NCBI GenBank assembly: GCA_963666115.2
Contig: CAXXET010000004.1
Span: 205,247-269,246, forward strand
Source of the DNA: Dehalococcoidia bacterium
GTDB taxonomy: Bacteria > Chloroflexota > Dehalococcoidia > UBA6926
DNA length: 64,000 nucleotides
Reading direction: 5' to 3'
Shown here: positions 14,989 to 63,691 of the stretch, in pieces
Layout of the letters: each line of letters starts with the position of its first letter
How positions within the stretch are numbered: the stretch's first letter is position 1
The notes under the pieces: model-generated
Seen by the model: only the letters and a program-made list of their open reading frames with translations
Database searches by the model: none
Told to the model about the DNA's origin: nothing
Program-made: the position numbers and the translations under genes

Positions 14989-15143
14989 GAATCAGCCCTC
15001 CCCCGTTTATCCCTTATTGGCGCGCAGGCGTACCCCCGCACGCGGCGAGAATAGCATTGCGGGAATGGCAGGGGCAAGGCGGGAGGCACAAGCGCGTACA
15101 CTTGCAGTAGCGGATAGTTTCGGATGCGGCGGAGGAGATTCGG

Positions 15144-16462: not shown

Positions 16463-16531
16463 CTAGTTGTCCTCCCTGCTGTGTCCTCGTAGGGGTCTCA
16501 CGTCAAAGCGTAGGTATGGGGGCGGGTTGTG

Positions 16532-17221: not shown

Positions 17222-17232
17222 GCCGGCGCGCC

Positions 17233-17988: not shown

Positions 17989-18016
17989 GGCGCTGTGTTC
18001 CCACTGGTGAGGGTGA

Positions 18017-44352: not shown

Positions 44353-44766
44353 TCAAGGGACGACGACGCCGAGCGGGTTGGCGCCAACCGCCTGCCCGAT
44401 GGCGCGCGCCGCCTTTGGCCTGCCGATGGCGTGCGCCACGTCACCGTATGTCCACACCTTGCCGGCGGGAATCTCGGTGAGGGTCTGCCAAACGGCGCGC
44501 TGGAAGTCCGTTCCGCCGTCCATGTCCAGCGGGCCCGAGAGATCCATCTCCTCCCCGTTCGTGTAGCGCGCCAGCGCGTCCGCCCAGTGGTTGAGAACCT
44601 CATTGGCAGGATCGTCATGGAGGAGGCCGGGGATGTCCGCGCGCTCCTGCTCGATGAGCGCCCGATCATCATGCGGCCCCAGGACGGCTTTCAGACCCTT
44701 TGGCGAGGCGATAAGGCCGAGGAATCCGAGCGGCGTCGAAATAACCCTGTGACCGTTAGCGTGCAT
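44353..44766 (-). CDS. ogt: Methylated-DNA--protein-cysteine methyltransferase (Ogt/MGMT), reading frame stopped by TGA at the catalytic-Cys codon
   Basis: It has the N-terminal domain, then FQRAVWQTLTEIPAGKVWTYGDVA...RAIGQAVGANPLGVVVP followed by TGA. The same frame continues [17 protein letters not shown]...LAHEG to a TAG at 44164. See the finding at 44164..44766. Confidence 0.8.
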   Translation of the reverse strand: MHANGHRVISTPLGFLGLIASPKGLKAVLGPHDDRALIEQERADIPGLLHDDPANEVLNHWADALARYTNGEEMDLSGPLDMDGGTDFQRAVWQTLTEIPAGKVWTYGDVAHAIGRPKAARAIGQAVGANPLGVVVP

Positions 44767-47104: not shown

Positions 47105-48348
47105 CTCTCGGGCCGCGTGAAGCTGCGGCGGTTGCCCGGCTGCATGGCAATCGGGCCCAGCGCGTTGAAGCTCAGGGCGCGCCCGATGTCATCGCCGAGC
47201 CGCACGATATACGCCGCGACGCCCATCGAATACAGGCTCGCAAGTTCGGCGGAGTGGTCGCCGGACGCGCCGAAACTCGTCGGCTCCAGCAGGATGACCG
47301 CCCCGGGCGAGTTCCGCTCTTGCAGGATGGACGCGGCGGCGATGGCGTCTTGCACAGACGGGGTGATGGCGATGACGCCGGTTCGACGGCTGAATTGCGC
47401 CTCGTGGATGCCGAGCAGTTCACCCAGGCTGACCCTGCCCTCCGCCCGGCACAGCGCTAACGCTTCCAGGATGCGCCACAGGTGCTTGTCGCCGGTTCCG
47501 TTGGGGATGGTGTATTCGGAATCGCCGATGGCGGAGAAGCCCACGCCGTTGTCGAACTCCAGCAGGTAGCGCGCGATGGAGGCGGCAACCGTGACGCTAA
47601 CCTCTTCCGTGCCGCTCAGGCCCTCGCCCACCTGCACAGCCGCGTTGAGGTCGAGGAGTATCGAGAGATCGGACTGCACCTCCGTCTCGAACTCCTTGAC
47701 CATGAGGCGGTTGAGCTTCGCGCTGCTCTTCCAATGGATGCGGTTGAGGCTGTCGCCAACGGTGTAGCGTCGAACGGATACGACGTTGGGCGTGAACTGG
47801 GACGTTGCGCGGTAGTCCGGCGCGTCGCCCGTCTCCTCCGCGCTGGAGATCACGAAGTCGTCAAGCGGGAACGGGGCCGGATAGACGACCAGTTCGCGCC
47901 GCTCGCCGATGACTCGCGTCGTCTCGAAAAGGCCGAACGGGTCGGACGCCGTGACGCGCAGCGGCCCCCAGTGAAAGCGGCCGCGCTTGTCCGCGCGCGT
48001 TCCCAGTTTCGTCCAGTTGCGCGAGCCGCGCGTGGGCACGCCCATGACCTCGGACGCAAGCGCAGGAACGTCGCCGATGTCCTCGATATGCAGCCAGGGG
48101 CGCGGCAGGAGGGAGGTATTTTCCAGCCACACGGACTCCTCCACGCGCTCCCCCACCTGCGCCAGCGACGGCTGATCGTCCGCGCCCGCGCTGATTCCGC
48201 GCAGGCTCAGCTTCGTCCACAGCCACGCCAGGATGAACACGGCGATGACGGCGCTGAGCAGATAGGACATGACGTAGAATCCCGACCCAAGGGTCAGGAA
48301 GAGCGCCATCAGGATCAGCGCGCCCAGATAGACGCGGCGACTCCGCAC
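47092..48348 (-). CDS. DUF58 domain protein
   Basis: VRRYTVGDSLNRIHWKSSAKLNRLMVKEFE signature, with the usual position downstream of MoxR. Confidence 0.85.
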   Translation of the reverse strand: MRSRRVYLGALILMALFLTLGSGFYVMSYLLSAVIAVFILAWLWTKLSLRGISAGADDQPSLAQVGERVEESVWLENTSLLPRPWLHIEDIGDVPALASEVMGVPTRGSRNWTKLGTRADKRGRFHWGPLRVTASDPFGLFETTRVIGERRELVVYPAPFPLDDFVISSAEETGDAPDYRATSQFTPNVVSVRRYTVGDSLNRIHWKSSAKLNRLMVKEFETEVQSDLSILLDLNAAVQVGEGLSGTEEVSVTVAASIARYLLEFDNGVGFSAIGDSEYTIPNGTGDKHLWRILEALALCRAEGRVSLGELLGIHEAQFSRRTGVIAITPSVQDAIAAASILQERNSPGAVILLEPTSFGASGDHSAELASLYSMGVAAYIVRLGDDIGRALSFNALGPIAMQPGNRRSFTRPERWGA

Positions 48349-48357
48349 GCTGCCCCC

Positions 48358-49332
48358 TCAGTTCCGCAGCCACCCTCGCGGCACGGCTCCCGGCACAGGC
48401 ACGCGCTCCAGCACCTGCGCCAGCACGTCGTCGGTCGTGACGCCCTGCATCCGCGCGTTCGGGTTGAGGATGATGCGATGCCCCAGGATCGGGCCGACCA
48501 GCCGCTTGATGTCGTCCGGGAGCACGTAATCACGGCCGTCCATCACCGCGCGGGCCTGCCCCCCGCGAAAGAGTGTCAGCGCCCCCCGCGGCGATGCACC
48601 CACGTAGACGGAGCCGTGCTCGCGCGTGCCGTCCACGATGTCCACGATGTACCGCTTGATCAAATCGTCCACGTACACCTGCCGCACCGCCTGTTGGAGG
48701 TCCAGCGCCTCCTCCGTCGACGTGACCGGCTCGATGGAGTCTATCGGGTGTTCGAGGCGCGTTCGATCCATGATTTCCATTTCGGAATCGATCGTCGGAT
48801 AACCCAGCGAGAGGCGCAGGAAAAAGCGGTCGCGCTGCGCTTCCGGCAGCAGGAACGTCCCCTCATGCTCCAGCGGGTTCTGCGTGGCGATCACGTGGAA
48901 CGGCTGCGGCAGCGGGTGCGTCACGCCATCCACCGTCACCTGCCCCTCCTCCATCGCCTCCAGCAGCGCGGATTGGGTCTTCGGCGTGCCGCGGTTGATC
49001 TCATCGGCAAGGAGGACGTGCGCGAGAACGGGGCCTGCGCGGAACTCAAACTCGCCGGTGCGCTGGTTGTAGAGGTTGACGCCAATGACGTCCGTGGGCA
49101 GCAGATCGGGGGTGAACTGGACGCGCTTGAATGACGCGCCGAGGGAGACGGCAACGCTGCGGGCCAGCATCGTCTTGCCGACGCCAGGCACGTCCTCGAT
49201 CAGGAAGTGGCCGCCGCCCAACACGGCCGTCAGCGCAAGCTCCGCCGCCGCGCGCTTGCCCACGATGACCCGTTCGACGTTTTCCAACGTCTTGTCCACA
49301 ACCTCGCGCGCGCGGTCAACCGTCGCTGCCAC
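48358..49332 (-). CDS. MoxR-family AAA+ ATPase
   Basis: HFLIEDVPGVGKT Walker A, LLADEINR Walker B and ATQNP sensor motifs are present. Confidence 0.9.
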   Translation of the reverse strand: MAATVDRAREVVDKTLENVERVIVGKRAAAELALTAVLGGGHFLIEDVPGVGKTMLARSVAVSLGASFKRVQFTPDLLPTDVIGVNLYNQRTGEFEFRAGPVLAHVLLADEINRGTPKTQSALLEAMEEGQVTVDGVTHPLPQPFHVIATQNPLEHEGTFLLPEAQRDRFFLRLSLGYPTIDSEMEIMDRTRLEHPIDSIEPVTSTEEALDLQQAVRQVYVDDLIKRYIVDIVDGTREHGSVYVGASPRGALTLFRGGQARAVMDGRDYVLPDDIKRLVGPILGHRIILNPNARMQGVTTDDVLAQVLERVPVPGAVPRGWLRN

Positions 49333-50551: not shown

Positions 50552-50941
50552 ATGACTGCTGTTGAGTCCGATGCCGCGCACATATTCGCAGATGCCCGCT
50601 TCATGCGGGACGCCGCGCTTGAGCGCATGGCCGCGGGAGACATCAGGGACGCGGCTGAGAAGGCGTGGTGCGCCACCATGCGCGCAGCGGAGGCCCTCGT
50701 GCTTGCCCGGACAGGCGAGGAGCCCCGGACATCCACAGTCGCAAATCGAAGGCTGCGGGCCATTGCCGCCGAAGACGGTTCCGTTCGGAACCTTGCACAC
50801 CTTTACTCCTACCGTCAGGACGTCCTGCACGGCGAGTGCTTCTACCACGAATACTGCCAGCCTGAGGTGACGGAGCAACTCATCAACGAGACATTGGACT
50901 ACATACAGGACGCTGAGCGGTTGGCTTCGCCCTCCTCGTAG
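50552..50941 (+). CDS. HEPN-superfamily protein (PaREP1-like) with an Rx4H motif
   Basis: 129 aa, predicted all-helical. It has AAEKAWCATMRAAEAL and YSYRQDVLHGE (R-x4-H). Confidence 0.55.
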   Translation: MTAVESDAAHIFADARFMRDAALERMAAGDIRDAAEKAWCATMRAAEALVLARTGEEPRTSTVANRRLRAIAAEDGSVRNLAHLYSYRQDVLHGECFYHEYCQPEVTEQLINETLDYIQDAERLASPSS

Positions 50942-50947
50942 GGAAGT

Positions 50948-50973
50948 CCCGTTCACCCTGAGCCTGTCGAGGA
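50948..50973. repeat. Repeat family A copy (inverted orientation)
   Basis: cccgttcaccctgagcctgtcgagga, between the HEPN gene and the 70-aa ORF. Confidence 0.75.
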
Positions 50974-50980: not shown

Positions 50981-51193
50981 ATGCCAACCGCAGTTGAGGT
51001 TCAGAAGGCGATAACCGACCTTCCAAAGGCGGAGTATGACAAGCTGATCCATTGGCTCCAGGACTATGACTGGGACGTGTGGGACCGGGAGCTTGAAGAG
51101 GACGCAGAGGCCGGGAGGCTGAGGTTGGTGGCGGGCAAGGCCCTTGACAACCGTGCCGCTTATCGCAATCCTGATGGAAAGGTTCCTCCCTGA
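50981..51193 (+). CDS. Small antitoxin-like protein
   Basis: 70 aa. ...LPKAEYDKLIHWLQDYDWDVWDRELEEDAEAGRL resembles small addiction-module components. It lies 40 nt downstream of the HEPN gene. Confidence 0.45.
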   Translation: MPTAVEVQKAITDLPKAEYDKLIHWLQDYDWDVWDRELEEDAEAGRLRLVAGKALDNRAAYRNPDGKVPP

Positions 51194-51257
51194 TGACAAG
51201 AGCCCAAGGGGCTCTCTCCGGAAACGGAGTAGTCGGGGAGGTCATTTTTAATCGCGC

Positions 51258-51920
51258 TCAGTAGTAGCGCCGTGTACCGTCGCGGAAGATGTCAGACTCG
51301 GTGCGGATGGCGGAATTGATCCGGTTGTAGGCAGTCTCGTCTCCTCTCTCGTGCTTGCGGAAGACAGCCCAGCAACAGTAGTCGGCAATTTGGAGGCCAT
51401 AATGGGAGCGCGAATCATGGTGCGCTATGCGATAGCGCGTTCCTTCCGGCAACATGTTTGCCAAGGTGACCTTAATCGCCTTTTCGACGGCCCGGCGCCT
51501 CTTCTGCACGGGAAGACTGTCAGTAATAATGATGACCTCATCGGTGTCAGGATGCGATGACCTTGCGAGCAAGTCCCCAAGCAAATGCCCCAGCATCTGC
51601 GGGTAAAAGCGCCCATCGGCTCTGAGAGCCGGCTCTGTCTTGCTCTTCTCCACAATGACGCTGTCCACGTGTATGCCAGCCAAGCCGTTTGAGATGATGT
51701 CAAACACGTGCCCACGCACACGAGGGTTGTCCTCTGAACAGTGAAAGTACTCCTGTTCCACACCTTGCTCAAGAAGATCATACTTGTACGAATCGAGCGT
51801 CTCATTCAATCGAAATGGCCTCCGCATGCTGACACCGGTTAGCGCGAAGAAGCGTGTGCCGCTCACGCTAAAGTCCAGATTGCCGGATTCGTCAAGGAAT
51901 ACGTACAGCGCCTCGTTCAA
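51258..51920 (-). CDS. DUF3800 domain protein
   Basis: The N-terminal YVFLDESGNLDFS is characteristic of DUF3800. It lies in an AT-richer segment. Confidence 0.7.
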   Translation of the reverse strand: MNEALYVFLDESGNLDFSVSGTRFFALTGVSMRRPFRLNETLDSYKYDLLEQGVEQEYFHCSEDNPRVRGHVFDIISNGLAGIHVDSVIVEKSKTEPALRADGRFYPQMLGHLLGDLLARSSHPDTDEVIIITDSLPVQKRRRAVEKAIKVTLANMLPEGTRYRIAHHDSRSHYGLQIADYCCWAVFRKHERGDETAYNRINSAIRTESDIFRDGTRRYY

Positions 51921-52006
51921 GAGATTGCCGCCCCCTCAGCCGCCCAATTGCCGCATGGTTCACCCGCTTCCTGGGCGAGTATAGCAATCCCCAGCCCTCA
52001 GCCCCC

Positions 52007-52076
52007 CGCTCACCCTGAGCCTGTCGAAGGGCGAACCCGCCCGCACCGTCTTTCCCGCGAACGCGGGAATCCAGCC
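52007..52076. repeat. Mosaic repeat: family A (inverted, 52007..52032) + family B hairpin (52051..52076)
   Basis: It contains cgctcaccctgagcctgtcgaagggc and tttcccgcgaacgcgggaatccagcc. Confidence 0.75.
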
Positions 52077-52152
52077 CCCGCCCTCTCATTCCGGCGAAAG
52101 ACCACAGAGGGCGACGATTTGACACATCTGCTCTACAGACAGCATAGTACAC

Positions 52153-52350
52153 ATGAGCGCAGTACTTCGGAAGCCTTACGGAGGTTCGGAAATGATGGTG
52201 GGAATGATGGTCTCGCTGGGAATTCTTGGCCTGGGGTTGCTCCTAATCCTCGTCGGACTCAACAGCCCCCTCTCGCTAATTCAGGTTGGTATCGGCATCT
52301 TCTTGGCAGTGCTTGGAGCAGCGGGATTTCTCTTATCGCTGAAGAGATAA
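52153..52350 (+). CDS. Small two-TM membrane protein (hypothetical)
   Basis: 65 aa with two hydrophobic helices. No homology recognised. Confidence 0.3.
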   Translation: MSAVLRKPYGGSEMMVGMMVSLGILGLGLLLILVGLNSPLSLIQVGIGIFLAVLGAAGFLLSLKR

Positions 52351-52390
52351 TATGCCAGCCGCCAGCTATATGTTCCAATCCCGTCCCCGT

Positions 52391-52417
52391 CATTCCCGTG
52401 ACAACGGGAATCCAGCC
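52391..52417. repeat. Repeat family B copy
   Basis: cattcccgtgacaacgggaatccagcc shares the gggaatccagcc end with 52065..52076. Confidence 0.65.
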
Positions 52418-52591
52418 CGGCTCCCGTCCACGCAGGGCGAGCCACAATTCCCTCCTCCATTTCAGCGCGGTGGGCCACAATGGTGTCACGCTTGCAAACG
52501 CAGAACGTCGGAGCTATCATATGCTTTCTAGGACGACTACATCGGGGTTTCCACCCGTGGTCAAATCGACGCCGCAACGGCAAGGGGGGCA

Positions 52592-52903
52592 GTGATGATT
52601 ATTGTGCACTTAGCGATTCTGGCGCTGGGAGCCGTACTTGGCTTCCGAGCGCACTTGCTGGCAGCAGTGCTGTCGGCGGCATACATCATGATGTGGTACG
52701 TTGCGATTGAGCCGTGGATCCAAGGGCTTGGCGGTAACACGGTATCACTTGTGTCATTGCTATTGGCCGTACCTACCGCCTTGCTGGCAGTCCTAACCGT
52801 CGTCGCGTGGTGGCTGGCCGCAGGCATCATAGTGGGGTTCGCGCTAAGGTGCCTTACAGTTGGCACGCTCCACCTTCTGGGAAACCTCGGAGGTGGGCGC
52901 TAA
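52592..52903 (+). CDS. Small multi-TM membrane protein (hypothetical)
   Basis: 103 aa with 3-4 hydrophobic helices. No homology recognised. Confidence 0.3.
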   Translation: MMIIVHLAILALGAVLGFRAHLLAAVLSAAYIMMWYVAIEPWIQGLGGNTVSLVSLLLAVPTALLAVLTVVAWWLAAGIIVGFALRCLTVGTLHLLGNLGGGR

Positions 52904-52963
52904 GGCTGGTGGGCTAAACTTCCTGAACCGGAAGTTGCTTCTTTGGGGTAACCTGCCGTCCCC

Positions 52964-55900
52964 CTACCCCCGCCCACCTCTGGTGCCTGCGCGCGTGTGG
53001 CGGAACTCCACCCGTTCAATCAGGAGCGACCGTATCTCATCAAGTTTGTCCGCAAAGCCGAATTGCTTGCCGACGATTTCGTCAATGCGGAGATGGTGCT
53101 CAGTTTTTAGCTCCTCTGTGACGGGCAATGGCGATCTGTCCGCGACGCTCTTGAACAGGGCACGCGCCTCATCGCCAAAGTCGAAATCAAAGTGGACAGG
53201 AAAGGGCTTCATGTCCGTGGCCTCCGCCTTCAGCAACCCACCTCCCAAGTTGGCCCTACCCGTGAGCTCTCTGTAGAGCCAGGCAAATGACGAGTTCATG
53301 TAGAGCCACAGGCAGTAATGCAGATCGGATTCCCAACGCCCGTCAGGCAAGTAAAGCTCTACACCACTGAATGAAAAGGCTTTGCTCTGGTTTAGGGCGC
53401 AGTAATGTCTGGTGCCGATGCCTCTAGGCATCAGGAGCGCCGGAACTTTGGAAAGCCGCGAATCGGACACATCATCTTTACGGACGTGCGCGTCCGGCTC
53501 ATTGCAGCCAAACTCTGGCACGTCCACCACAACACCAATTGTGGCACCAGCTACATTGTGCAACTTCTTTGAGACATTGATGCCTTGCCCAAACTCAATG
53601 GTTGGCTTCTGCGGGCGTTTTTCTGAAACGGATACGTCAGCCAAGATAGCCCGGAACCAGTCGGGCATCGCAAAAAGGTGACCCCACTTCATGCCCGAGG
53701 TTATATCGATTGACCGCGTATCGGTCTGTGCCATGCTCTCATTGACGACGTGATAGTCAATCGGCGTGTCCCTGTAGTTGCCGAAGGTGCAGACTATGGC
53801 GTTGATGTTGGGCCCGGATGCGTCAGAGAAGAACCGTGCCGAAGTATCAACGATGCTGCGGAAGGAGAATCGCCCCTTTGTGAACTTCTGGAATACCTGA
53901 CCATAATCCGAGGTAAGCCAACCGTTCTGAGTTACGAACGAAGCCGTTCCGTGATTCGCCAAGAGTTTCGCCGCTCGCGCGAAGAAATAGATGAGGAGGT
54001 CACTGCCCCCAGCCACTGTCTCGCCCCAGTCCTTTTGTACAACACTCCTGTAACTCTCTTTGGCGTCCTGTGCAAACAAGCTATTGCGTGCTTCAAGGTA
54101 CGGCGGGTTCGCGATCACGATGTCAAAGCCGTCGCGGACTCCGAACATGAACTCCGGATCGAACCAGTCTGCCGCGTCCTGTGAGTCGGCCAGCACGCTC
54201 TGCTCCATCGGGTCCCAGTTAGCAATCTTCGATGCGCCGTCCGTTGGGAAGTCCGCCTGCATCAGGTATTGGGCAAGCAGGCCGCGGAGACGGCGATCCT
54301 CGTCGCGCAGCCGGCGCTTCTCCTGTCGCGCCGCGCCTGCGTGGAAGAATCGTTCCCGGTTGTCCAGGAGTTGCTGCTGCGTGCGGCGGACGTTCTCATC
54401 CTGGTCGCCGAACGAAAGCTGCTCGGGGCGGTCTAGGCCCAGCAGCGTATCCGCCGTGACGAACCGCGTTTCAAGGTTTGGCAGTGGGCGGATGCCGAAG
54501 TTGTCCGCCGGATCATCATTGGAGTCCTGCTCGATAGCGAGGGAGATGAAGAAGCGCAGCTTGGCGATTTCCCCCGCGTTTGGGTCGATGTCAACGCCGT
54601 AGATGCTGTTCTGGATCAGGTAGAGTTTGCGCCCAAAGTTGGACTCCTTGTACCGTTCGAACGTCCCGCTAATCTGATTCAGCGCGGCGTCCCTGTCCTG
54701 TATCTCGGATATCCAGAAGGCTTGGTCGGCCCGCGCGGACGCGATTTCACGCTGCGTTTGCTCCCATAGGGCATTGTCCGGATCCAAGCGGCGCAAAGCC
54801 AGGGTGAGCTTATGGAGGACGCCCATGGGGAACGCGCCCGAACCGACGGCGGGATCGAGAACGCGCAGGGCCGCAATTGCGCGGACAATGCGCTCTTTCT
54901 CCGCGTCCTCAAACAACTCCCCGCCTTGCGCGTAATCGAACAGGAAGTGAAGCCGCTCCGCCCACCAGTCGTTCGGATCACCGTCCGGCGCGAGCTTGGT
55001 GAGCAGGGCGGCGACGAGGGCCTCATCCGCCATGTAATCGACGACGGGGCGGGGCGTGTAGTAGGAGCCGGCCTGCTTGCGGGCACTCTCGCCGGTCTCC
55101 GCGTTGATGGACGCCAGCAGGTTCTCAAACACTTTGCCCAACAACTCCGGGTCTAGCGCGACCTCCATATCCGTCGGTGTATTCTCCTCGACGGTGAACT
55201 TGTAGTGGTTGAAGAGCGTGATCAGCCCCTTGTCATCAAAGAAGAGGCGGTTGGGCCATGAAAGTTTGCCGTGCTCATCCGTGCCCTTTCTGAGCATGTT
55301 GTCGCTGAAGTAGTCGATGCGGTAGCCGCCGTCTCCGGCCGCCTCAAAGCTGTCCAGGCAGTCGAACAAGCCGCCGTTGATGAACGGCGTCCGGTCGAAT
55401 AGCGCCCGCAGACGCGTCGGATCCGCCATCTCTTTCTCATAGCGGTACAGCGAGGTCAGGCGATGGGTCTTGTTCGCGCGGCTGCTAAAGCCGCGGTCAG
55501 CGATGCCCGTGTTCAGCGTGGCGAAGAACAGGTTCTGCAGGACGGCGCGATAGTACGAATCGCCCTCAGCGGCGTCATAGCTCTTGAGCAGGTCCTTGAT
55601 CTGGTTCTCGATGAACAGGTCCTCCGCGACGAGGCGCTTTTCCTTGATGAACCACACGAAGAGGAGGCGTGTGATGAGTCGCAGAGTGTGCCGCTCTTTC
55701 GGCTGCTCTCTCGGCACCCCCACCGGGAACTTTGCCTCATCGATAGCGCGGTCGAACCACGCTTTGAGTTCGCTGTAGAACTTCCTGTTCAACTCCTCCG
55801 TGTCCAACTCGTCAAGCCACGCCGCAAGCAGGCCCTCAAAGTTGGGTTGCTTGCGCTCCTTATCCATCCAGTCCAGGCGCTTATCAAGCGATAGTTCGCT

Positions 55901-56509
55901 GATGATGTCCACGTGGGCGCGATGGGGCTTCACCGGATCAATCTCGCGGATTAGGGAGACTGCGCCCAGGACGTCTCGATCCGGGTTCCGTATGTTGGGG
56001 CGGCGGTGGACGAATGAGACGGTGAGGTGGCCCGTCGCTGTCCGGAAGAGGACGACGGCGGGGATGGCGGGGAAGCGGCGGTTGACCTCCCGCGTCATGG
56101 CGGCGTAGGCGCCCCGGCGGTATTCGTCGCTCGTGAGTTCCGCAGCGACGAAGAGGAAGCTGCGTATCGAGTTGACGTCAAAGGCTGCGCCGTCCGAGAG
56201 TTTGAGACGCTGCTGCCCGCGCTCCGCGTTGATCTCCGCATCCGTGAGTTGGAAGAGCACGTGGAGGGATGAGGCATTGTTGCGCAAGAGGGTTTCATCC
56301 GCCGTCGGCGGCGTATCGGGCGGGAAGGGTTTGCCATCCGGCTTGAGGCGAGGATACGCGGACAGGAACGCGCCCAGATCGCCCGTCTGACCCGGCGGCG
56401 TCCGGTCGCTCTTGTAGCCGAGCGTGTCCAGGAGCGCCGCCGCGCCATCGGCAAAAATCACCCTGCGATGCGTCGCGGAGCGCGTTTTGGATGGGCTGCC
56501 TCGCGGCAA
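52964..56509 (-). CDS. Eco57I / type IIG-family N6-adenine DNA methyltransferase with its own target-recognition region
   Basis: 1181 aa. It has GSYYTPRPVVDYM, motif I VLDPAVGSGAFP and motif IV FDIVIANPPY, followed by about 450 aa of TRD-like sequence. The N-terminal part has the LITRLLFVWFIKEKRL region common to type IIG/PglX-like enzymes. Confidence 0.85.
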   Translation of the reverse strand: MPRGSPSKTRSATHRRVIFADGAAALLDTLGYKSDRTPPGQTGDLGAFLSAYPRLKPDGKPFPPDTPPTADETLLRNNASSLHVLFQLTDAEINAERGQQRLKLSDGAAFDVNSIRSFLFVAAELTSDEYRRGAYAAMTREVNRRFPAIPAVVLFRTATGHLTVSFVHRRPNIRNPDRDVLGAVSLIREIDPVKPHRAHVDIISELSLDKRLDWMDKERKQPNFEGLLAAWLDELDTEELNRKFYSELKAWFDRAIDEAKFPVGVPREQPKERHTLRLITRLLFVWFIKEKRLVAEDLFIENQIKDLLKSYDAAEGDSYYRAVLQNLFFATLNTGIADRGFSSRANKTHRLTSLYRYEKEMADPTRLRALFDRTPFINGGLFDCLDSFEAAGDGGYRIDYFSDNMLRKGTDEHGKLSWPNRLFFDDKGLITLFNHYKFTVEENTPTDMEVALDPELLGKVFENLLASINAETGESARKQAGSYYTPRPVVDYMADEALVAALLTKLAPDGDPNDWWAERLHFLFDYAQGGELFEDAEKERIVRAIAALRVLDPAVGSGAFPMGVLHKLTLALRRLDPDNALWEQTQREIASARADQAFWISEIQDRDAALNQISGTFERYKESNFGRKLYLIQNSIYGVDIDPNAGEIAKLRFFISLAIEQDSNDDPADNFGIRPLPNLETRFVTADTLLGLDRPEQLSFGDQDENVRRTQQQLLDNRERFFHAGAARQEKRRLRDEDRRLRGLLAQYLMQADFPTDGASKIANWDPMEQSVLADSQDAADWFDPEFMFGVRDGFDIVIANPPYLEARNSLFAQDAKESYRSVVQKDWGETVAGGSDLLIYFFARAAKLLANHGTASFVTQNGWLTSDYGQVFQKFTKGRFSFRSIVDTSARFFSDASGPNINAIVCTFGNYRDTPIDYHVVNESMAQTDTRSIDITSGMKWGHLFAMPDWFRAILADVSVSEKRPQKPTIEFGQGINVSKKLHNVAGATIGVVVDVPEFGCNEPDAHVRKDDVSDSRLSKVPALLMPRGIGTRHYCALNQSKAFSFSGVELYLPDGRWESDLHYCLWLYMNSSFAWLYRELTGRANLGGGLLKAEATDMKPFPVHFDFDFGDEARALFKSVADRSPLPVTEELKTEHHLRIDEIVGKQFGFADKLDEIRSLLIERVEFRHTRAGTRGGRG

Positions 56510-56515
56510 CCGTGT

Positions 56516-59500
56516 CTACTTGATTACCAGCCATGTGACAAGCTCGAAGTCTTCCTGTGTGGCGGGCGTTTCGCCGGCCCTGGGCAGGGTGAAGCCCCTG
56601 CCGCCTGTGCTGAGGCCCTGGGCGACGGCGGTTGCGCTGCTCTGCCGGATGTGGGCGATGACGGCTTCCACGAGGTCATTGTAGTGCGACATGTCCTGGC
56701 CCTGCTGCGTTTCGCGCGTGAACTCGTCAGAGAGCGCCGTGATGGGATCGGTCTTGCCGGCGGTCGCCGCGTCAAAGGCCTCCAGCGCCTGCCGCGCGTT
56801 GGCGCACCCGAACCGGATCGTGCCGTTGTCGCCGATGTAGACGAGGTAATAGGGGTGGACGGGGCTTGCGGGGCGTGAGCCGGGCGCGGGCCTGCCGGCG
56901 TTGCGCTGCTTGAGGAGGAAGATGACGCCGGGGCCGTGGGCGTCTTTGGGCGGTTCCGGGGTGACGGCGTACGCGCCGAACGGCATGTTTTCCAGCATGT
57001 CACGGTTCTTTTCCAGGAACTTCCGGAGTTGGACGAGGAAGTAGTCCATTGAGAAATCGCTCAGCACGACGCCGTCGCCCAGGTCGTCAATGTCCAGGAT
57101 TTCGTCGCGCATTCGCCGCAGCTGCTCATCGCGGAACGTCAACTCCATCTGCGCGCCCTCCGCGAGCCCGGCTTCGGTGAAGAGTTCCTCGCCGCCGCCG
57201 GTGGTGTCCACGAGGGCCATGCGGGCCATGACGCGGTTCTCCAGGTCAAGGTATTCCTGCATATTCGGCGTGGGCCAGTAGTTGATCATCCTGACGGAGG
57301 CGCTGCGGCTGCCGATGCGGTCAATGCGGCCAAAGCGCTGGATGAGGCGGACGGGGTTCCAGTGGATGTCATAGTTGACGACGGTATCGCAGTCCTGGAG
57401 GTTCTGGCCTTCCGAGATGCAGTCCGTGGCGATGAGGATATCGATGTCCTGCGCGATCGTGCCGTCGTCACGGCGGTTGCGGGCGACGGGCGCGAAGTCC
57501 GTGAGAATCTCCTGAAAGCGAGTTTCGTACCGCCCGCCGGCGTCCGACGGGGGCGCGGTGTCCCGCGTTTCGTCGCCGGCGACCATGGCCATGCGGACGC
57601 CGCGCGCCTCGGCCTCTTGCCGGAGGTTTTCGTAGAGGTAGAGGGCGGTGTCTTTAAAGGTGGTGAAGGCGAGCAGTTTGCGGTTCTCCTTACCGTCGTT
57701 GTCCGTGGTGGGTGATTCGATGCGCCGGCGGATTTGCGCCTGCAGGTCCTGGAGCTTGCCGTCGCGTTCGGGGGTGATGGCGGCGACGCGCTCACGGACG
57801 GCGTCCAACGTTTCACGATCACGCATGATATCCGCCCGCCAGCGGTCACGGTCAAGCTCATCAAGTCGGTATGGGCGGCGGGCGTGGTTGATGAGGAAGT
57901 CATCGTCGTCGCCGACGTCTTCTTCGTCCGGGGTTTCACCGGCGAGTTCCGCAGTGTTCTCAAAGCGGTCCATGCGCTCCAGCAGGTTGTCCATCTTGGC
58001 GATGGTGCGCTCCAGGGTGAGGGCGAGGGAGTGGGGTGAGCTTTCGAGGCGTTTGAGGAAGTTGACGCGGAGCATGGCGACCAGGTAGTGCTCGCGGTCA
58101 CGCTGGTTGAAGTTGAATTTCGATTTCTCATCCTCCAGCTGCTGCCGGCGGTTCGGGTCATGGAGGTACGCGGACGGCTGGTAGATGGAGAGGGCGAATT
58201 GGCCGATGCGGTCTGAGAGGTCTTTGTAGGAGACGGGCTGTTGGGTGTCCGCCTCCGGGTAGGCATTGACGGGTTTTTCATGTGTGGGGAACTGCCCGAT
58301 GCGCTCCATCTCTTCGGCGTAGGACTGCTGGATTTGGCGGCGGGAGCGGGCGATGGAGACGGTACTGAGCAGGCGCTGGAACTCCGGCCCGAACTTTGCC
58401 ATGAGCCCCGATTTGTCGCGGCGGACGCCGGCCTTCTTCGAGTCCTCCTCCCACGACTTGAACTCGGCCTGGGCAGCGGCCATCACCGTGTTGAGGTTGG
58501 CGATGCTTTCCGTTTCCAGGAAATGGTCGGCACGCCCCTGCGTCATCAAGTGGATCTGGTTGCGAAGATCGATGAGCGACGTGTTGACGGGGGTGGCGGA
58601 CAGCATGAGAACCTGCGTCTGCGCCCCGTCTTTGATGATCTCCTCGAAGAGTTTCTTGTAACGCTTGCCGCCGTCGTTGCGGAAGTTGTGGGACTCGTCG
58701 ATGACGACGAGGTCGTATGCACCCCAGTTGAAATCGCCGAGATCGATGTTGCCGGACCTGCCGCCATCACGGGACAGGTCTGTGTGGGCGAGCACGGTGT
58801 AGCCGAACTGATCATCCCGGAAGGGGTTGTTGAGGCGGTTGTTGTACCGGGGATAGAGCGCCCAGTTTTCCCTGAGCTTGTTGGGACAGAGGACGAGGAC
58901 GCTCTTGTTGCGGAGTTCGTAGTACTTGATAACGGCGAGGGCGGTGTACGTTTTGCCAAGGCCGACGCTGTCCGCGAGGATGCAGCCGTTGTTCCGCTGA
59001 AGTTGGCGGATAATGCTGCGCGCGCCTTCACGCTGGAATTCGTAGAGGTCCTGCCAGATGCGCTTTTCAGAGAGGCGGGTCTGCCGCGCGGCGTCCGCTT
59101 CCCTTTCCATGTCCGCGATCCTGTCCTTGAACATCTCGTACAGCGTCTTGAAGTACACGATCTCCGGGGAGTAGTCGCGGCTGATGCGGCCCAGCGCGTC
59201 CAGCACCTCCTGCTTGACGTCGTAGGTGCGCGCCTCGTCGTTCCAGAGGTTGTCGAACCACTCGCGCAGTTCGTCGCGGAGGGCGGGATCGGGCATATCG
59301 ACGTTGATTTCCAGGTTGGGGCGGGCGCTGCCACCCAGGCCGCTCCTGGTGAAGTTGGAACTGCCAACGATGGCGGCGTCATCCGTGATATACATCTTGC
59401 CGTGCAGGAAGTTGGCCTGGCGGATGGAGCGGATGTCCACCGCGCCGGCGGCGACCCATTCCGCGCAGCGGCGGGCCAATTCCTTTTGATGGAGGATTTG

Positions 59501-59764
59501 GGTGGGCGCCAAGCCGCTGTCGGTCAGCCTGAAGTTCCGCCCCTCCGTCCGGCCGGGGTCCACGTCTTCGATGGACGTGGGATCGCCGAAGAGGAATCGC
59601 GTTTGGCCGACGTTGGCGAGCAGGTCAGCCAGCAATTCATAGCCGTAGATGCTGAAGTAGGCGGAGACGACGTCAAAGTTCGCCGCCGCGTCAAGATGGG
59701 TTCGCAGGCGATCCACCACGCGGCGGTCGGGGGTGTTATCCAGCAGGTAGTTGGGGTTGGACAC
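56516..59764 (-). CDS. PLD-family nuclease domain fused to an SNF2-family helicase
   Basis: 1082 aa. It has a single HKD motif [20 protein letters not shown] (His121), then SNF2 motifs ADSVGLGKT and [11 protein letters not shown], and helicase-C ...[36 protein letters not shown]. It lies 6 nt upstream of the methyltransferase gene. Confidence 0.85.
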   Translation of the reverse strand: [1082 protein letters not shown]

Positions 59765-59793: not shown

Positions 59794-60873
59794 TTACTCA
59801 AGCCAGTTTAGCAGGCGGGTTTGGGGCCAATCTATTGTGATTTGGGTGGTTGTGTTTGGGTGGGGGCGTGTGGTGGCGGTTGTGATGGGGGCGCGGGCGT
59901 GGAGGGTTTCGCCTTGGACGTCCAGCGTTACGTCGTACATGCCGCCCTGGAGGGTTACTTCGACGATTGTTGCCGATAGCGCGGGGGGGTCATCGTTGGC
60001 GGCGGTGTGGGTGTCGGGCTGGTGGAGGGTTGCGGCCTCCGGGGGGATTAGGGCTGTGCATTGGGGGGTGGCGGGGATTTCTGCGGGGCGCCAGACGCCA
60101 AGGGCGCAGCGGGCTTCGTTCGTGCCGTCCTCGCGGGTTGAGAGTTCGCAGGGGAAGAGGTTTTCGTGGCCGAGGAATCTTGCGACGAAGGGGGTGGCGG
60201 GGTTGAGCCAGACTTCTTCCGGGGGGCCGTGCTGGACGGCTTTGCCTTGCTCCAAGACGAGGATGTCGTCGGCGACGGCGAATGCTTCATCGTGGTCGTG
60301 GGTGACGTAGATGAGGGTCACGCCCTCGTGGTCGCGGATATGGCGGACCTCCTGCGCCAGCTCCTCGCGGAGGCGGCGGTCTAGCGCGCCGAGCGGCTCA
60401 TCGAGCATCAGGAGGCGGGGACGGGGGGCCAAGGAGCGGGCAAGGGCGACGCGCTGCTGCTCACCGCCAGAAATGGCATCGACGGAGCGGCCGGCAAGCG
60501 GCGCAATTCGCATCAGTTCCAGCAGCTCATCGACGCGTCGTTCGATTTGCCCGGCCTCCCATCGTTGGCTGCGCAGGCCGAACGCGATGTTGTCGCGGAC
60601 GTTGAGGTGCGGGAAGAGGGCGAGGTCCTGGTGCATGAGGCCGAAGCCGCGGCGATGAGGCGGGATGCCGTTCAGCGATTCGCCGTTCATGGCGGCCTCC
60701 CCGCCGTCAGGGGTTTCAAGCCCGGCGATGAGGCGGAGGAGGGTGCTTTTGCCGCAGCCGCTGGGGCCGAGGACTGCGAGAGATTTGCCTTCGTCCAGGT
60801 TGAAGGAGACATCCGCCAGGGCGAGAGAGGCGCCGGCGTCATAACTCTTGGTGAGGGCGGTTATTTGCAGCAC
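59794..60873 (-). CDS. thiQ: ABC importer ATP-binding protein (FbpC/PotA/ThiQ-like, with a C-terminal regulatory domain)
   Basis: Walker A GPSGCGKST, LSGGEQQRVALAR and LMLDEPLGALD are present. The symbol rests only on the TPP riboswitch that heads the operon. Confidence 0.8.
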   Translation of the reverse strand: MLQITALTKSYDAGASLALADVSFNLDEGKSLAVLGPSGCGKSTLLRLIAGLETPDGGEAAMNGESLNGIPPHRRGFGLMHQDLALFPHLNVRDNIAFGLRSQRWEAGQIERRVDELLELMRIAPLAGRSVDAISGGEQQRVALARSLAPRPRLLMLDEPLGALDRRLREELAQEVRHIRDHEGVTLIYVTHDHDEAFAVADDILVLEQGKAVQHGPPEEVWLNPATPFVARFLGHENLFPCELSTREDGTNEARCALGVWRPAEIPATPQCTALIPPEAATLHQPDTHTAANDDPPALSATIVEVTLQGGMYDVTLDVQGETLHARAPITTATTRPHPNTTTQITIDWPQTRLLNWLE

Positions 60874-60909
60874 GTGGGCTCCTGGTAATGAGTTTTTGGA
60901 TTCTTCGCT

Positions 60910-60946
60910 GCGCTCAGAATGACATGTGGGGCGCTCAGAATGACAT
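60910..60946. repeat. Two direct copies of gcgctcagaatgacat (period 21 nt)
   Basis: The copies are at 60910..60925 and 60931..60946, in the 77-nt spacer between the ABC ATPase and permease genes. They are related to the ..cgctcagggtgaca.. arm of family A. Confidence 0.7.
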
Positions 60947-60950
60947 TTCT

Positions 60951-62615
60951 CTAGAACTCTCCCCAGCCTCGGTAGCGGGCGCGCTCGATTAGGAAGAATC
61001 CGGCGCCGGCGACCACCATCAGCACTGTGCTCATGGCGAGGGCGCTGGCGAGATTGGCCGCTCCCGGACGCGTCAGGTAATTCAGGATGGCGACGGGCAT
61101 GGTGGTGTATTCGGGGCGATTCAGGAGGAGGGTCGCGCCGAACTCGCCGAGGGAGACGGCGAAGGCGAAGACGCTTGCGACGAGGATGGCGCGGGACAGG
61201 ATGGGGAGGTCAACGCGGGCGGCGGCGGCGAGAGGGCTTGCGCCAAGCATCCACGCGGCCTCACGCAGATGGGGGCGGATGGCTCGCATCGTCGACAACA
61301 CCACCCGTATGACGAACGGGTACGCGATGAGGGTGTGGGCGAGGATGATGGGGACGACCGTGGTTCGCACGTCGAACGCGCCGATCCTCAGGCTGAGCAG
61401 GTAGCCGAGGCCGAGCGTGACGGCGGAGACGCCGAGCGGCAGCATGTACAGGGCGTCCAGCGGGTTGCGCCACCACGCGCGGGGGTTTCTCAAGCCGTAC
61501 GCGGCAAGGACGCCGAGCGGGACGGCGAGAACGACGGTCACGGCGGCAAACGCAAGCGAGTTCCTTATAGCGTTGACCGGCGAGATGTAGAAATACTCGT
61601 TGCGGTCGTTGGACATGATGGCCGTGTAGCCGTCCAGCCCAAGCCCGTCCGGCGTGATGAATGAGCGCAGGAGCAGGGCGAGCGGCGGCGACAGGACGAG
61701 GAACACGGAGGCCAGCGCGCCAAGCCGGATGATGTAGTCCGCCGGGGAACGGCTCGCGGACGCAGTTGCGCCCTGGGCGCGGAGTCGAATGCGGGTCACA
61801 GCCGCCGACTGGAGCTTGACGTACGCCCACAACATGCCGAACGTCGCAATGAGTTGGGTGAGGGCGAGGGCGGCGGCAATGTGGGGCCTGAACAGCTTTG
61901 TCATGAGTGTGTAGATTTCCACTTCCAGCGTTGCGTGCTCAGGCGCGCCGAGGATCAGGATGATACCAAAGCTCGTGAAGGTGAACAGGAAGATGAGCGC
62001 GGATGCGGCCGCCACCGCAGGCAGCAAAAGCGGCAGTGTCACGGTGAAAAAAACGCGGCGGGGCGACGCGCCCAACATGGCGGCGGCCTCCTGCACCGCC
62101 GGATCCATGTTCGCCCAGAACGTGGAGAGGAGGCGCACGACGATGGCGTACTCATAGACCACGTGGGCGATGAGGATAATCGCGAACGTGTTAAGGAGGT
62201 TGACGGGAGGCGCGTCGAATCCGAACAGGCCCGTCAGCGCGTCGTTGAGCAGGCCCGACGGGCCGAGGAGGGAGAGCAAACCAAGCGCCATGACGATGGG
62301 GGGGAGGATGAACGGAATGGTGATCGCGGCAAGGAGCGCGCTCCGGCCCCGGAACCGGTGGCGCGCGAAGACGTAGGCGGACGGCAGGCCGAAAGCGAGA
62401 GCGAGGACGGTCGATAGAGCCGCCTGCCCTACCGTAAAGGCGAAGCGGCCCCGGAGGTAGGGATCGCTCGCGGCGTCGACGAACGGCGCGAGTATGCCCT
62501 GCCCGTCCCACCCGAGGCCGACACGCATGACGCTGACAAGCGGCCACGCGAACGCCACCAGCAGGAATCCCAGGGGCAGGCCAATCCGCGCAATGCGCCA
62601 CACGCCCGCCATCAT
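60951..62615 (-). CDS. thiP: Two-domain ABC importer permease (ThiP/FbpB-like)
   Basis: About 555 aa with a duplicated MalFG-type permease domain. The start is taken at MMAGVW (62615); the ORF is open to 62648 and overlaps the binding-protein gene. Confidence 0.8.
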   Translation of the reverse strand: MMAGVWRIARIGLPLGFLLVAFAWPLVSVMRVGLGWDGQGILAPFVDAASDPYLRGRFAFTVGQAALSTVLALAFGLPSAYVFARHRFRGRSALLAAITIPFILPPIVMALGLLSLLGPSGLLNDALTGLFGFDAPPVNLLNTFAIILIAHVVYEYAIVVRLLSTFWANMDPAVQEAAAMLGASPRRVFFTVTLPLLLPAVAAASALIFLFTFTSFGIILILGAPEHATLEVEIYTLMTKLFRPHIAAALALTQLIATFGMLWAYVKLQSAAVTRIRLRAQGATASASRSPADYIIRLGALASVFLVLSPPLALLLRSFITPDGLGLDGYTAIMSNDRNEYFYISPVNAIRNSLAFAAVTVVLAVPLGVLAAYGLRNPRAWWRNPLDALYMLPLGVSAVTLGLGYLLSLRIGAFDVRTTVVPIILAHTLIAYPFVIRVVLSTMRAIRPHLREAAWMLGASPLAAAARVDLPILSRAILVASVFAFAVSLGEFGATLLLNRPEYTTMPVAILNYLTRPGAANLASALAMSTVLMVVAGAGFFLIERARYRGWGEF

Positions 62616-62623
62616 GTGGCCGC

Positions 62624-63691
62624 CTATCCGCGCATTAGCGCAGTCCATTCATCGATCCAGCGTTCACGCCCCTCCGCAATCGTCCTTGGGCTAAGCTGCG
62701 CCGGGTCATCGGGGATAGGAGCGAAGTCGAATACGTCCGGCAATTCCGCCTGCTCGTTCACCGGATAGACCCACATCAGGGTGGGAAAGTGCTCCTGGAA
62801 CCGGCGGTCCATCATGAAGTCCACGAATTGCTGCGCGAGCTCCTCGTTGCGGACGCCCTCCAGGATGCCGATGCCCTCGATCTGCATGAACGCGGAGTTG
62901 TCGCCCAACACGTTGGCCGTTGGCGGCTCCGTCAGCGCGCCCTCCGAGTAAAACACCTCTGCCGCCGGGCTGCTCGTATAGCTGACGACGATGGGACGGT
63001 CGCCCTCATACAACGAAAAGGCCGTGTAATAGGCATCCGTCCATCCGTCCGTGACGAGAACCTCGTTGTCATGCAGGTCCGTCCAGTAGTCCTGCCACGT
63101 ATAGTCCCCGTCCTCGCCAAATGCGGCGACAGTCGCAAGCAGGAACGCAAGGCCGGGCGATGACGTGGCGGGATTCTGCACGACGGTCAGGCCACTGTAG
63201 GTTTCCTCGGTCAGGGAGCCCAAATCCGTTGGCGGGGCGACGCCGTTCTCCTCGAACCACGCGATGTCGTAGTTCAGGGCGACGAAGCCAAAGTCGACGG
63301 GCATGACGTGGTTGGAGGAGTCAAGACGGTATTTGCCGGGCACCTTTTCAAGCATCGGCGACTCATACTCGATGAATATCTCCTCGTCCAACGCCCTGCC
63401 AAGGAATGTGTTGTCGATGCCGTAGAGCAGGTCCGCAATCGGCGCGTCCTTGGCCAGGATGGCCTTGGTGAGGGCCTCGCCGGCATCGCCGGACTTGAGG
63501 ATTGTGATTGTGGCGTCATGCTCAGCTTCGAACTCCGCGATGACATCTTCACCGACATTGAAGCTGTCGTGCGACATTATGATCAGGTCACGCGGCGGCG
63601 GTTCCGTGTTGATGCTGACATTGAAGTTGTCACAGGCCGCGGCCGCCGCCGCCAGCATGATGATGAGTGCGATTGCCATTACACGATCCAT
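62624..63691 (-). CDS. thiB: Thiamine/iron-type ABC substrate-binding lipoprotein
   Basis: It has a signal peptide with the lipobox AAAAC and a periplasmic binding-protein fold pattern. It is immediately preceded by a TPP riboswitch. Confidence 0.8.
   Translation of the reverse strand: MDRVMAIALIIMLAAAAAACDNFNVSINTEPPPRDLIIMSHDSFNVGEDVIAEFEAEHDATITILKSGDAGEALTKAILAKDAPIADLLYGIDNTFLGRALDEEIFIEYESPMLEKVPGKYRLDSSNHVMPVDFGFVALNYDIAWFEENGVAPPTDLGSLTEETYSGLTVVQNPATSSPGLAFLLATVAAFGEDGDYTWQDYWTDLHDNEVLVTDGWTDAYYTAFSLYEGDRPIVVSYTSSPAAEVFYSEGALTEPPTANVLGDNSAFMQIEGIGILEGVRNEELAQQFVDFMMDRRFQEHFPTLMWVYPVNEQAELPDVFDFAPIPDDPAQLSPRTIAEGRERWIDEWTALMRG

Follow-up and report, generated by a model that had tools for sequence, protein, structure and literature searches.

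The window analysed here is a 64,000-nucleotide (nt) stretch of the genome of a Dehalococcoidia bacterium (contig CAXXET010000004.1), and the subject of this work is a pair of adjacent genes on its minus strand, which encode a predicted motor-nuclease and a DNA methyltransferase (MT). The first open reading frame (ORF), referred to below as the helicase, occupies positions 56516-59764 (1082 aa) and is followed by the MT at 52964-56509 (1181 aa); a stop codon separates the two, giving two polypeptides. The helicase starts with GTG and has a ribosome-binding site, AAGAGGA, upstream. A first-pass annotation, made from the sequence alone, had described a single-HKD phospholipase D (PLD) nuclease domain fused to a SNF2 helicase, and an Eco57I-type N6-adenine MT beginning six nucleotides downstream. 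Both ORFs are real and lie where that annotation placed them, its domain calls were borne out by Pfam profile searches that recovered PLDc_2, SNF2-rel_dom, Helicase_C, Eco57I and N6_Mtase, and each motif that it quoted occurs once in the translations: the HKD segment at aa 120-139 of the helicase (59348-59407), and VLDPAVGSGAFP at aa 550-561 (54827-54862) and NPPY at aa 801-804 (54098-54109) of the MT. The six-nucleotide gap holds if the MT starts at the TTG codon at 56509, but not if it starts at GTG 56461, as does the database copy of the MT (P0121, 1165 aa), which leaves 54 nt after the helicase stop codon. Since more than 8000 database proteins match the helicase at E ≤ 1e-10, and likewise the MT, a chance origin of the ORF pair is excluded. 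The annotation names used at NCBI are 'helicase-related protein' and 'Eco57I methylase domain protein'.

The helicase gene was delimited from its ORF, start context, Pfam matches and PADLOC match. Its N-terminal 200 residues (59165-59764) form a PLD-fold nuclease domain that matches PLDc_2 (9.5e-12, aa 93-174) and RE_NgoFVII PLD profiles. The protein contains H-x-K triplets at aa 92, 121 and 495, and because only H121/K123 are invariant among relatives we assign a single HKD motif, in agreement with the first-pass annotation; the helicase therefore holds half of a PLD active site. In Nuc, BfiI and other single-HKD nucleases the active site arises from dimerisation, and these enzymes must pair to cut. 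The nuclease domain is followed by a SNF2 motor. Lobe 1 of the ATPase (aa 237-400, 58565-59056) matches SNF2-rel_dom (2e-12) and ResIII (1.8e-10) over aa 240-393, and carries the Walker A motif GLGKT (58949-58963), DESH (58688-58699) and SATP (58589-58600). A helical insertion seen in the secondary structure of an AlphaFold2 (AF2) model (aa 401-689, 57698-58564) separates it from lobe 2 (aa 690-850, 57215-57697), which was identified from Helicase_C (2.7e-13, aa 771-818), Foldseek matches and invariant motifs, comprising motif V (57392-57427) and a second motif at 57311-57340. The C-terminal region (aa 851-1082, 56519-57214) is conserved in the family, and the model has low confidence at aa 843-908. 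About 97% or more of 78 relatives, drawn from many phyla, share the HKD residues H121, G122 and K123, the GSSNFT segment, GLGKT, DESH, SATP, and motifs V and VI, and in a second set of relatives (n = 48) the same motifs are strictly invariant, S136, N137, F138 and T139 included.

The AF2 model of the helicase (pLDDT 70, pTM 0.40) gave Foldseek matches to SNF2 remodellers, Mot1, RapA, Hef, ZorD and SauUSI (7clg). Its best PADLOC model is PDLC01075, 'C3a139 HKD+Snf2' (1.9e-100), with which aa 127-1045 align over positions 126-925 of 948; this places the protein in the HKD-SNF2 family (CDD PLDc_N_Snf2_like). The C3a139 model goes back to a survey of the gene neighbourhoods of Type III CRISPR loci (Shah et al. 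2018, PMC6546367). The closest relatives of the helicase are annotated as Chloroflexota or Dehalococcoidia.

The MT is 1181 aa long from TTG, or 1165 aa from GTG 56461, and was divided into four parts using its ORF, Pfam, an AF2 model (pLDDT 78, pTM 0.73) and Foldseek: a DUF4391-like N-terminal domain, a conserved helical spacer evident in the AF2 secondary structure (aa 236-470, 55100-55804), a catalytic core (aa 471-900, 53810-55099) and a C-terminal variable region (aa 901-1181, 52967-53809). The core matches Eco57I (5.8e-27, aa 634-893) and N6_Mtase (7e-8). Its motifs X (GSYYTP, 55052-55069), I (DPAVGSGAF, within the VLDPAVGSGAFP segment) and IV (NPPY) are all invariant among homologs and occur in that order, so this is a gamma-class N6-adenine enzyme. 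Conservation is lowest over the last ~280 residues, where pairwise identity averages 25%, compared with 44% in the core, and MT homologs carry a TaqI_C specificity domain here; judging from these sequence features, and as already proposed in the first-pass annotation, this is the putative target-recognition region. Foldseek searches with the MT model returned a nearly full-length match to BrxX/PglX as the top result (9ewz, 8zek and 8q56, about 1030-1100 aligned columns), together with CamA, BpuSI, MmeI, M.BseCI and M.TaqI. The MT combines methyltransferase and recognition domain in one chain, as Type IIG enzymes do, and its best PADLOC match is REase_MTase_IIG (5.6e-62).

Two observations concern variation within the MT family. 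Sequence of the locus is found in public metagenome runs, none of them recognisable as RNA data, as low-coverage contigs mixed with paralogs, and in one marine run (X3) a related strain has its helicase covered at ~8-11x with almost no contigs over the MT recognition region (52670-54537). This fits a different specificity allele, with some doubt left by the low coverage. Separately, five MT homologs (L052, at 13254-18068, and L054, L041, L077 and L066) are 1437-1604 aa long and contain an extra ~250-aa IS200-like Y1 transposase domain (PF01797, 4e-7; HUH motif HVHVIV), in frame between motifs X and I. The insertion occupies one common site in Nostocales, Chloroflexales and Verrucomicrobiota, with 42-53% identity across phyla, and in Nostocales it is bordered by tandem peptide repeats. 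It resembles a conserved domain insertion more than an insertion element that disrupts the gene.

The N-terminus of the MT, for which the first-pass annotation had correctly noted the lack of a recognisable nuclease motif, contains a domain that it overlooked. Residues 17-235 (55805-56461) form an alpha/beta domain with the conserved motifs LGYxSxRT, LFQLTD, SFLF, TRExN, RR, DVL and PHRAH (the last at 55913-55927). When the N-terminal domains of 21 diverse homologs were scanned singly, 13 matched PF14335 (DUF4391), the best at 6.7e-6, and one database homolog of the MT was already annotated with this family. A profile-profile comparison (hhalign) with seven free-standing DUF4391 proteins gave a probability of 89.8%, an E-value of 1.8e-6 and 141 aligned columns. 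Searched against 1.84 billion representatives, the window's domain found 644 clusters at 50% identity, 439 of them at E ≤ 1e-10; among the matches listed, the domain always sits at residues ~20-230 of full-length proteins of 1000-1680 aa. Two papers in the searchable literature mention DUF4391, neither of them in its title or abstract.

Type IIG and IIL enzymes carry a PD-(D/E)XK nuclease at the position equivalent to this domain. A nuclease in the MT N-terminus was considered and rejected: no nuclease family was matched, a profile search of the PDB gave just a marginal hit to 7dn8 (E 1.4), and homologs share no invariant acidic residue in the domain. What appears to be a decayed '(D/E)-L-(K/R)' strand lies at 56132-56158, where the triplet reads ELT; the canonical triplet is found in the majority of homologs only, and others have HLK, QLK, KLK, RLR or TLQ. 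Judged on these features, the MT chain probably lacks the competent endonuclease domain of a Type IIG enzyme.

The two genes form a conserved, self-contained two-gene unit. Relatives of the helicase occur in at least 593 species-level genomes (one genome scanned per species, first 600 matches listed), spread over Chloroflexota, Alpha-, Beta-, Gamma- and Deltaproteobacteria, Cyanobacteria, Gemmatimonadota, Verrucomicrobiota, Bacteroidota, Acidobacteriota, Planctomycetota, Nitrospirota and others; cultured carriers include Oscillochloris trichoides DG6, Phormidesmis priestleyi ULC007, Dolichospermum sp. LEGE 00240 and Polaromonas sp. CG_9.5. We fetched 80 loci seeded from helicases, 63 of which had at least 3 kb of downstream sequence and were used to count MT genes. 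Of the 63, 60 have an MT homolog directly downstream in the same orientation; the remaining three comprise a lone helicase (L078), a locus where a DUF4011 helicase takes the place of the MT (L038) and one with no MT downstream (L006). The reverse also holds, as the helicase is found upstream of the MT in all four loci seeded from MT proteins, and the pair is present in three more loci seeded from the helicases P0002 and P0110, two of which are near-identical copies of one contig. One Planctomycetia locus (L043, 14196-19149) has its MT in at least five fragments beside an intact helicase ORF, and represents a decaying copy. According to our own ORF calls the two genes abut or slightly overlap in most relatives, which suggests that helicase and MT are translationally coupled; operonic coupling is thus the rule whichever start the MT uses.

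When 969 neighbouring ORFs from the 80 loci were clustered, only the helicase and MT families were present in most loci, with no third conserved gene. An AAA_15-type ATPase gene follows the MT in 11 of the 80 loci, and is not found in the window. Tyrosine recombinases occur in six loci, integrases and TIR(-TPR) proteins lie nearby in some, and genes for VapC/PIN with antitoxin, DUF1016/YhcG, Schlafen-AlbA_2, HigBA-like or Fic proteins are occasionally found between or after the pair. Such extra genes are typical of restriction operons and defence islands, and insertions of toxin-antitoxin (TA) or DUF1016 genes are also seen in Type I operons. With TA, DUF1016, AlbA_2 and Fic genes inserted in or next to it, and with integrases and TIR proteins in its vicinity, the pair has the setting seen in restriction and defence islands. 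Close relatives hold the pair at unrelated genomic positions. The homologs are not embedded in complete DISARM, BREX or Hma loci, an outcome that would have counted against the autonomy proposed in the first-pass annotation, and the pair is therefore best seen as an autonomous unit. As separate observations, a TA (VapC/PIN or HigBA-like) or DUF1016/YhcG PDDEXK gene is inserted between helicase and MT in L018, L023, L031, L048, L071 and L077, and further loci listed for TA or DUF1016 insertions are L033, L051, L056, L063, L070, L072 and L171.

A second gene arrangement connects the helicase to DUF4391. Distant relatives of the helicase (35-37% identity over the full length) are encoded on 183 plasmids of bacteria and archaea. 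Seven plasmid loci were inspected, from Acinetobacter, Enterobacter, Acetobacter, Methanomethylovorans, Desulforapulum, Mycolicibacterium and Bacillus. All seven encode the HKD-SNF2 helicase, directly followed by a free-standing DUF4391 protein and then a site-specific methyltransferase, and in five a DEAD/DEAH or Type III R helicase gene comes next. In the Acinetobacter cassette, the one that was scanned, the last two genes encode Type III Mod (PADLOC 5e-170) and Res (E = 0), and the helicase matches C3a139 end to end. A search seeded with the Acinetobacter DUF4391 protein gave only homologs of more than 93% identity, so the diversity of the family was drawn from plasmid records and a metagenome scan. 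Among 80 metagenome loci seeded with DUF4391, the HKD-SNF2 gene lies directly upstream in 54 of the 58 with enough sequence, and nearby in the other four; Mod lies downstream of DUF4391 in 57 of 59. In a neighbour-joining tree, all 38 helicases from this sister cassette fall in one clade, apart from 36 helicases of the fused type. The cassette as a whole (L081-L082, L086-L090 and L091-L170) has four or five genes, in the order small HTH gene, HKD-SNF2, DUF4391, Type III Mod and Type III Res, and is widespread on bacterial and archaeal plasmids and in metagenomes.

In the window, too, DUF4391 is encoded directly after the helicase, here as residues 17-235 of the MT. Because a free-standing DUF4391 gene follows the helicase in the sister clade and the domain is fused to the MT in the present one, HKD-SNF2 and DUF4391 appear to form a deeply conserved dyad. 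The same pattern, a separate protein in the sister clade and an MT N-terminus in this one, is a fusion ('Rosetta stone') signature, which argues for a physical link between DUF4391 and the helicase. Divergence was also compared: Spearman correlations of helicase divergence with that of the parts of the MT are 0.55 for the N-terminal domain, 0.50 for the helical region, 0.41 for the core and 0.14 for the recognition region.

Taking these data together, we favour with moderate confidence a reading of the pair as a self-contained, two-gene, ATP-dependent restriction-modification (RM) system, one that would follow a logic like that of Type III or Type ISP enzymes using different parts. The domain content, the invariance of the catalytic motifs, the obligate pairing, and the homology of DUF4391 with its tie to HKD-SNF2 proteins were all computed directly. 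To what the first-pass annotation had proposed, our analysis adds that DUF4391 probably links the methylase to the motor-nuclease. From these features we infer docking through DUF4391, translocation, a requirement for two sites or a dimer, and a defence phenotype, in the following scheme. The MT would bind a specific short DNA sequence through its variable C-terminal recognition region and, as its motifs and fold imply, methylate adenine (m6A) at the site, marking host DNA as self. The DUF4391-like domain, not itself a nuclease, may dock or activate the HKD-SNF2 protein, as the fusion signature suggests. At an unmethylated site the MT would load the SNF2 motor, which, by analogy with its family, would reel in double-stranded DNA using ATP. 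Cutting would take place only when two HKD domains meet to make one active site, through dimerisation or the convergence of two complexes; this two-HKD requirement is suggested by the single HKD motif and the precedents of Nuc and BfiI. If methylation is confined to one strand, as in MmeI, PglX and Type ISP enzymes, a need for two sites or two motors would also protect freshly replicated host DNA.

Several points weigh against this reading. The N-terminal domain from the window itself falls below the detection limit of PF14335 when scanned alone, so the link to DUF4391 rests on the 13 of 21 homologs and on the profile-profile probability given above; a search for a solved structure of DUF4391 found none. 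The helicase model is of modest quality (pTM 0.40). The differences between the divergence correlations are modest, and the pairs are not independent. In addition, the sister cassette has a complete Type III Res, so HKD-SNF2 and DUF4391 may have a role there other than primary restriction, and such a role could have been carried over to the locus in the window.

Comparison with known systems shows where the parts agree and where they differ. Like the Type III enzyme EcoP15I, the pair consists of a specificity-bearing methylase and an SF2 ATPase-nuclease encoded by two genes. Type III enzymes methylate one strand of an asymmetric site, and their cleavage needs two cooperating enzymes; the same would be expected of the pair. 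However, the window has a gamma-class Eco57I MT rather than a beta-class Mod, SNF2 rather than Res, the reverse gene order, and an N-terminal HKD nuclease where Type III has a C-terminal PD-(D/E)XK domain; neither the MTase_III nor the REase_III model is among the best 25 of the 52 PADLOC families matched by each protein, so the pair is not the beta-class Mod with PD-(D/E)XK Res that defines Type III. With the Type ISP enzymes LlaGI and LlaBIII the pair shares all four functions, that is, a nuclease, an SF2 translocase, a gamma N6-adenine methylase and a recognition domain. Type ISP cleavage follows the collision of two translocating enzymes. These enzymes keep the four functions in one polypeptide with an Mrr/PD-(D/E)XK nuclease, whereas the window has two ORFs, an HKD nuclease and the DUF4391 connector. 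The nearest architectural precedent for the helicase is the Type IV enzyme SauUSI, in which a PLD-family nuclease is fused to an SF2 helicase; its target is modified DNA, and it works without a methylase partner. A PLD-family nuclease also works with an SF2 ATPase in CglI and NgoAVII, ATP-dependent Type II enzymes that have a separate PLD-B3 R protein and belong to a C5-type system. Compared with the sister cassette (Acinetobacter sp. NEB149 pMsp65, Desulforapulum pHRM2a, Methanomethylovorans pMETHO01), the window has a homologous HKD-SNF2 protein with DUF4391 right after it, but DUF4391 is fused to an Eco57I/IIG-type methylase with no Res, where the cassette has a free-standing ~225-270-aa DUF4391 with canonical Mod and Res.

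Two more systems share parts with the pair. In Hma, which has been shown experimentally to protect against T4 (PMC11232893), a SNF2 motor fused to a nuclease is encoded beside a methylase. However, HmaA carries its nuclease, a PD-(D/E)XK nickase, at the C-terminus, and by definition the system requires a third gene, for the ATPase HmaC; the HmaA model gave a partial match to the helicase, limited to the lobe 2 region (1.2e-19), and no third ATPase is conserved. In Type-2 'BREX-related' (BR) systems, an HKD-endoDNase N-terminal to a Swi2/Snf2 helicase is the proposed effector and an N6-methylase provides self-marking (PMC12839542). The defining components of these systems, described by the Aravind group, are a DUF499 ATPase, a DUF1156 methylase and DUF3780 (PMC12839542), and Pfam searches found none of the three in the window or in the related loci examined. 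As for the pair itself, the inversion-locus table of Milman et al. (2023) lists a 'Type II restriction-modification CDS, homologous to Cj0031' with an adjacent phospholipase D (cd09178)/SNF helicase CDS, so that the pairing is on record beside programmed inversions of the specificity region (PMC9881135); it is also on record near Type III CRISPR loci (PMC6546367). We found no paper in the searchable literature that names or tests it, and it is nameless in the defence libraries queried. The first-pass annotation had predicted that classifiers would miss the pair, which is half right: going by the library models matched, the helicase would be left an orphan, and the MT would probably be called Type IIG.

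In an alternative explanation, the MT is an ordinary single-chain Type IIG or IIL enzyme that cuts with its own N-terminal nuclease, and the HKD-SNF2 protein is an accessory or an independent defence gene. The helical region, MT core and recognition region are shared with MmeI, BpuSI, Eco57I and Cj0031, as the PADLOC match and the resemblance of the MT fold to BpuSI and MmeI (Foldseek 3s1s and 5hr4) attest; the triplet found in most homolog N-termini recalls the ExK of PD-(D/E)XK nucleases, and Milman et al. call such proteins homologs of the Type IIG enzyme Cj0031 (PMC9881135). We nevertheless think this unlikely. The triplet varies among homologs, no acidic position of the domain is invariant, and the domain matches DUF4391 and no nuclease family, so that the N-terminal nuclease seems to have been replaced by, or to have decayed into, a DUF4391-like domain. 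The ATP-dependent partner is obligatory: the MT is almost never found without the helicase (60/63 and 4/4 loci), and the many abutting or overlapping pairs point to translational coupling. A mechanism without cutting, akin to BREX, can also be envisaged, in which a PglX-like MT marks self, the SNF2 protein blocks phage replication or strips proteins from unmethylated DNA, and the HKD domain merely binds DNA. BrxX/PglX is the closest solved fold of the whole MT, both belong to the Eco57I-type family, and the MT has weak NCBIfam matches to PglX models; moreover, BREX types 2, 3 and 6 use SF2 helicases, and BREX acts without obvious DNA degradation (PMC12839542). We judge it quite improbable, as the invariant HKD His and Lys and the GSSNFT segment are what an active nuclease would be expected to have, the PglX scores of the MT do not exceed 44 bits against cut-offs of 400-900 (44 against 500 in one case), about ten-fold too low, and the core genes PglZ, BrxC, BrxA, BrxB and BrxL are absent at the pair, with PglZ, BrxC and other BREX core genes missing from both the window flanks and the 80 related loci.

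The first-pass annotation had likened the pair to a pared-down class 1 DISARM system, and a decayed remnant of such a system, without drmA, drmB and a separate drmC, was weighed as well. Three domain types are indeed shared (SNF2, PLD and N6-adenine methylase), with partial matches to the DrmD, DrmMI and DrmC models. However, in the window the PLD domain is fused to SNF2, and the equivalog models are missed by far: DrmD (NF038317) scores 146 bits against 610 and DrmC (NF038319) 17 against 133. The helicase matches C3a139 at 1.9e-100 and DrmD only partially at 2.6e-36, and the MT, which had been matched to DrmMI, matches that model at 5e-19, far behind Type IIG, and by fold is closest to PglX/BrxX and MmeI. 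As the first-pass annotation had itself noted, DrmA, DrmB (DUF1998) and an extra ATPase are absent from the window flanks, and around the 80 relatives neither DrmA nor DUF1998 recurs as a conserved neighbour. Hundreds of species across many phyla keep an intact two-gene form that is under purifying selection, which would not be the appearance of a remnant. We regard the remnant hypothesis as effectively refuted, and retain only a trace of belief in it. The model cut-offs and neighbourhood surveys led us to reject a truncated DISARM, BREX, Hma or BR system alike. In short, the description of the pair as autonomous and unclassified stands, and its description as a cut-down DISARM does not. There is also a very small chance that the pair is not for defence at all, and serves instead in epigenetic or phase-variable regulation, or in DNA repair or recombination through site-specific methylation. 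Genes of this kind are reported to undergo programmed inversion of the specificity region (PMC9881135), and phase-variable methylases can serve as regulators. However, regulation needs no conserved nuclease and motor partner, and the patchy distribution over phyla, the differing genomic positions in close relatives, and the TA, integrase and TIR neighbours fit a mobile defence pair.

The favoured reading, a two-gene ATP-dependent RM system, can be extended by a more speculative proposal, which we put forward tentatively. HKD-SNF2 and DUF4391 could together be a portable 'restriction motor' that plugs onto varied methyltransferases, fused to an IIG/PglX-like enzyme here and in trans beside Type III Mod in the sister cassette. 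The fused form would then be a distinct, unnamed type of ATP-dependent RM system, in which DUF4391 serves as an adaptor linking target recognition to a PLD nuclease that fires only when two motors dimerise. Should the RM model hold, the pair would represent an architecture outside the Type I-IV scheme, and DUF4391 would gain its first functional hypothesis, as the adaptor that connects a methylase with an HKD-SNF2 motor. It would also explain why a nuclease of their own may be missing from many proteins scored as Type IIG, which bears on methylome and REBASE-style annotation and on counts of defence systems. It would also point to a domain-swap route joining single-chain Type IIG/IIL enzymes, BREX PglX and ATP-dependent systems.

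The surroundings of the pair are as the first-pass annotation described them, with a transporter on one side, and DUF3800 and small ORFs on the other. An ABC-transporter operon (59794-63691, minus strand) borders the helicase. On the MT side lies a stretch of ~2.8 kb with a DUF3800 gene (51258-51920, minus strand, 1 kb downstream of the MT), a PaREP1-family ORF, small unannotated ORFs and short repeats, beyond which are a thiamine pyrophosphokinase gene and an operon for a MoxR AAA ATPase, DUF58 and a transglutaminase-like protein (TgpA; 44756-49332, minus strand), which seems ordinary housekeeping context. The G+C content falls from about 0.64 to 0.565-0.589 over 50-54 kb, a stretch that takes in the MT recognition region; this region has the lowest G+C of the locus (0.565 at 52-54 kb). 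No tRNA, integrase or flanking direct repeat that could mark an island border was found in the window, and a scan of the minus strand for promoters and terminators gave nothing over background.

Some minor features of this stretch were also recorded. The DUF3800 protein matches the PADLOC model 'DUF3800_VII' at 2.3e-8, with no reverse transcriptase nearby. The closest related locus (L083) has a 77% identical copy ~4 kb downstream of its MT, an identity higher than the 65% between the helicases, and a contig from run X3 links position 51249 to 51891, revealing a strain variant without the DUF3800 gene. The PaREP1-family ORF (50552-50941, plus strand; PF05942, 2.4e-5) is followed by a 70-aa ORF without a family match (50981-51193, plus strand), and the two may form a small two-gene cassette within the low-G+C stretch. 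The public runs that contain sequence of the locus come from sponge and marine metagenomes, which makes a sponge-associated bacterium the probable host. Two families of short intergenic repeats are present, one at 50948-50970 and 52005-52027, and the other, which has a GC-rich palindrome, at 52046-52077 and 52387-52418. Contig depth at 51736-52669 is 200-530 in the sponge metagenome runs, against about 5-50 nearby, which indicates that the intergenic repeats are highly multicopy in the sponge community.

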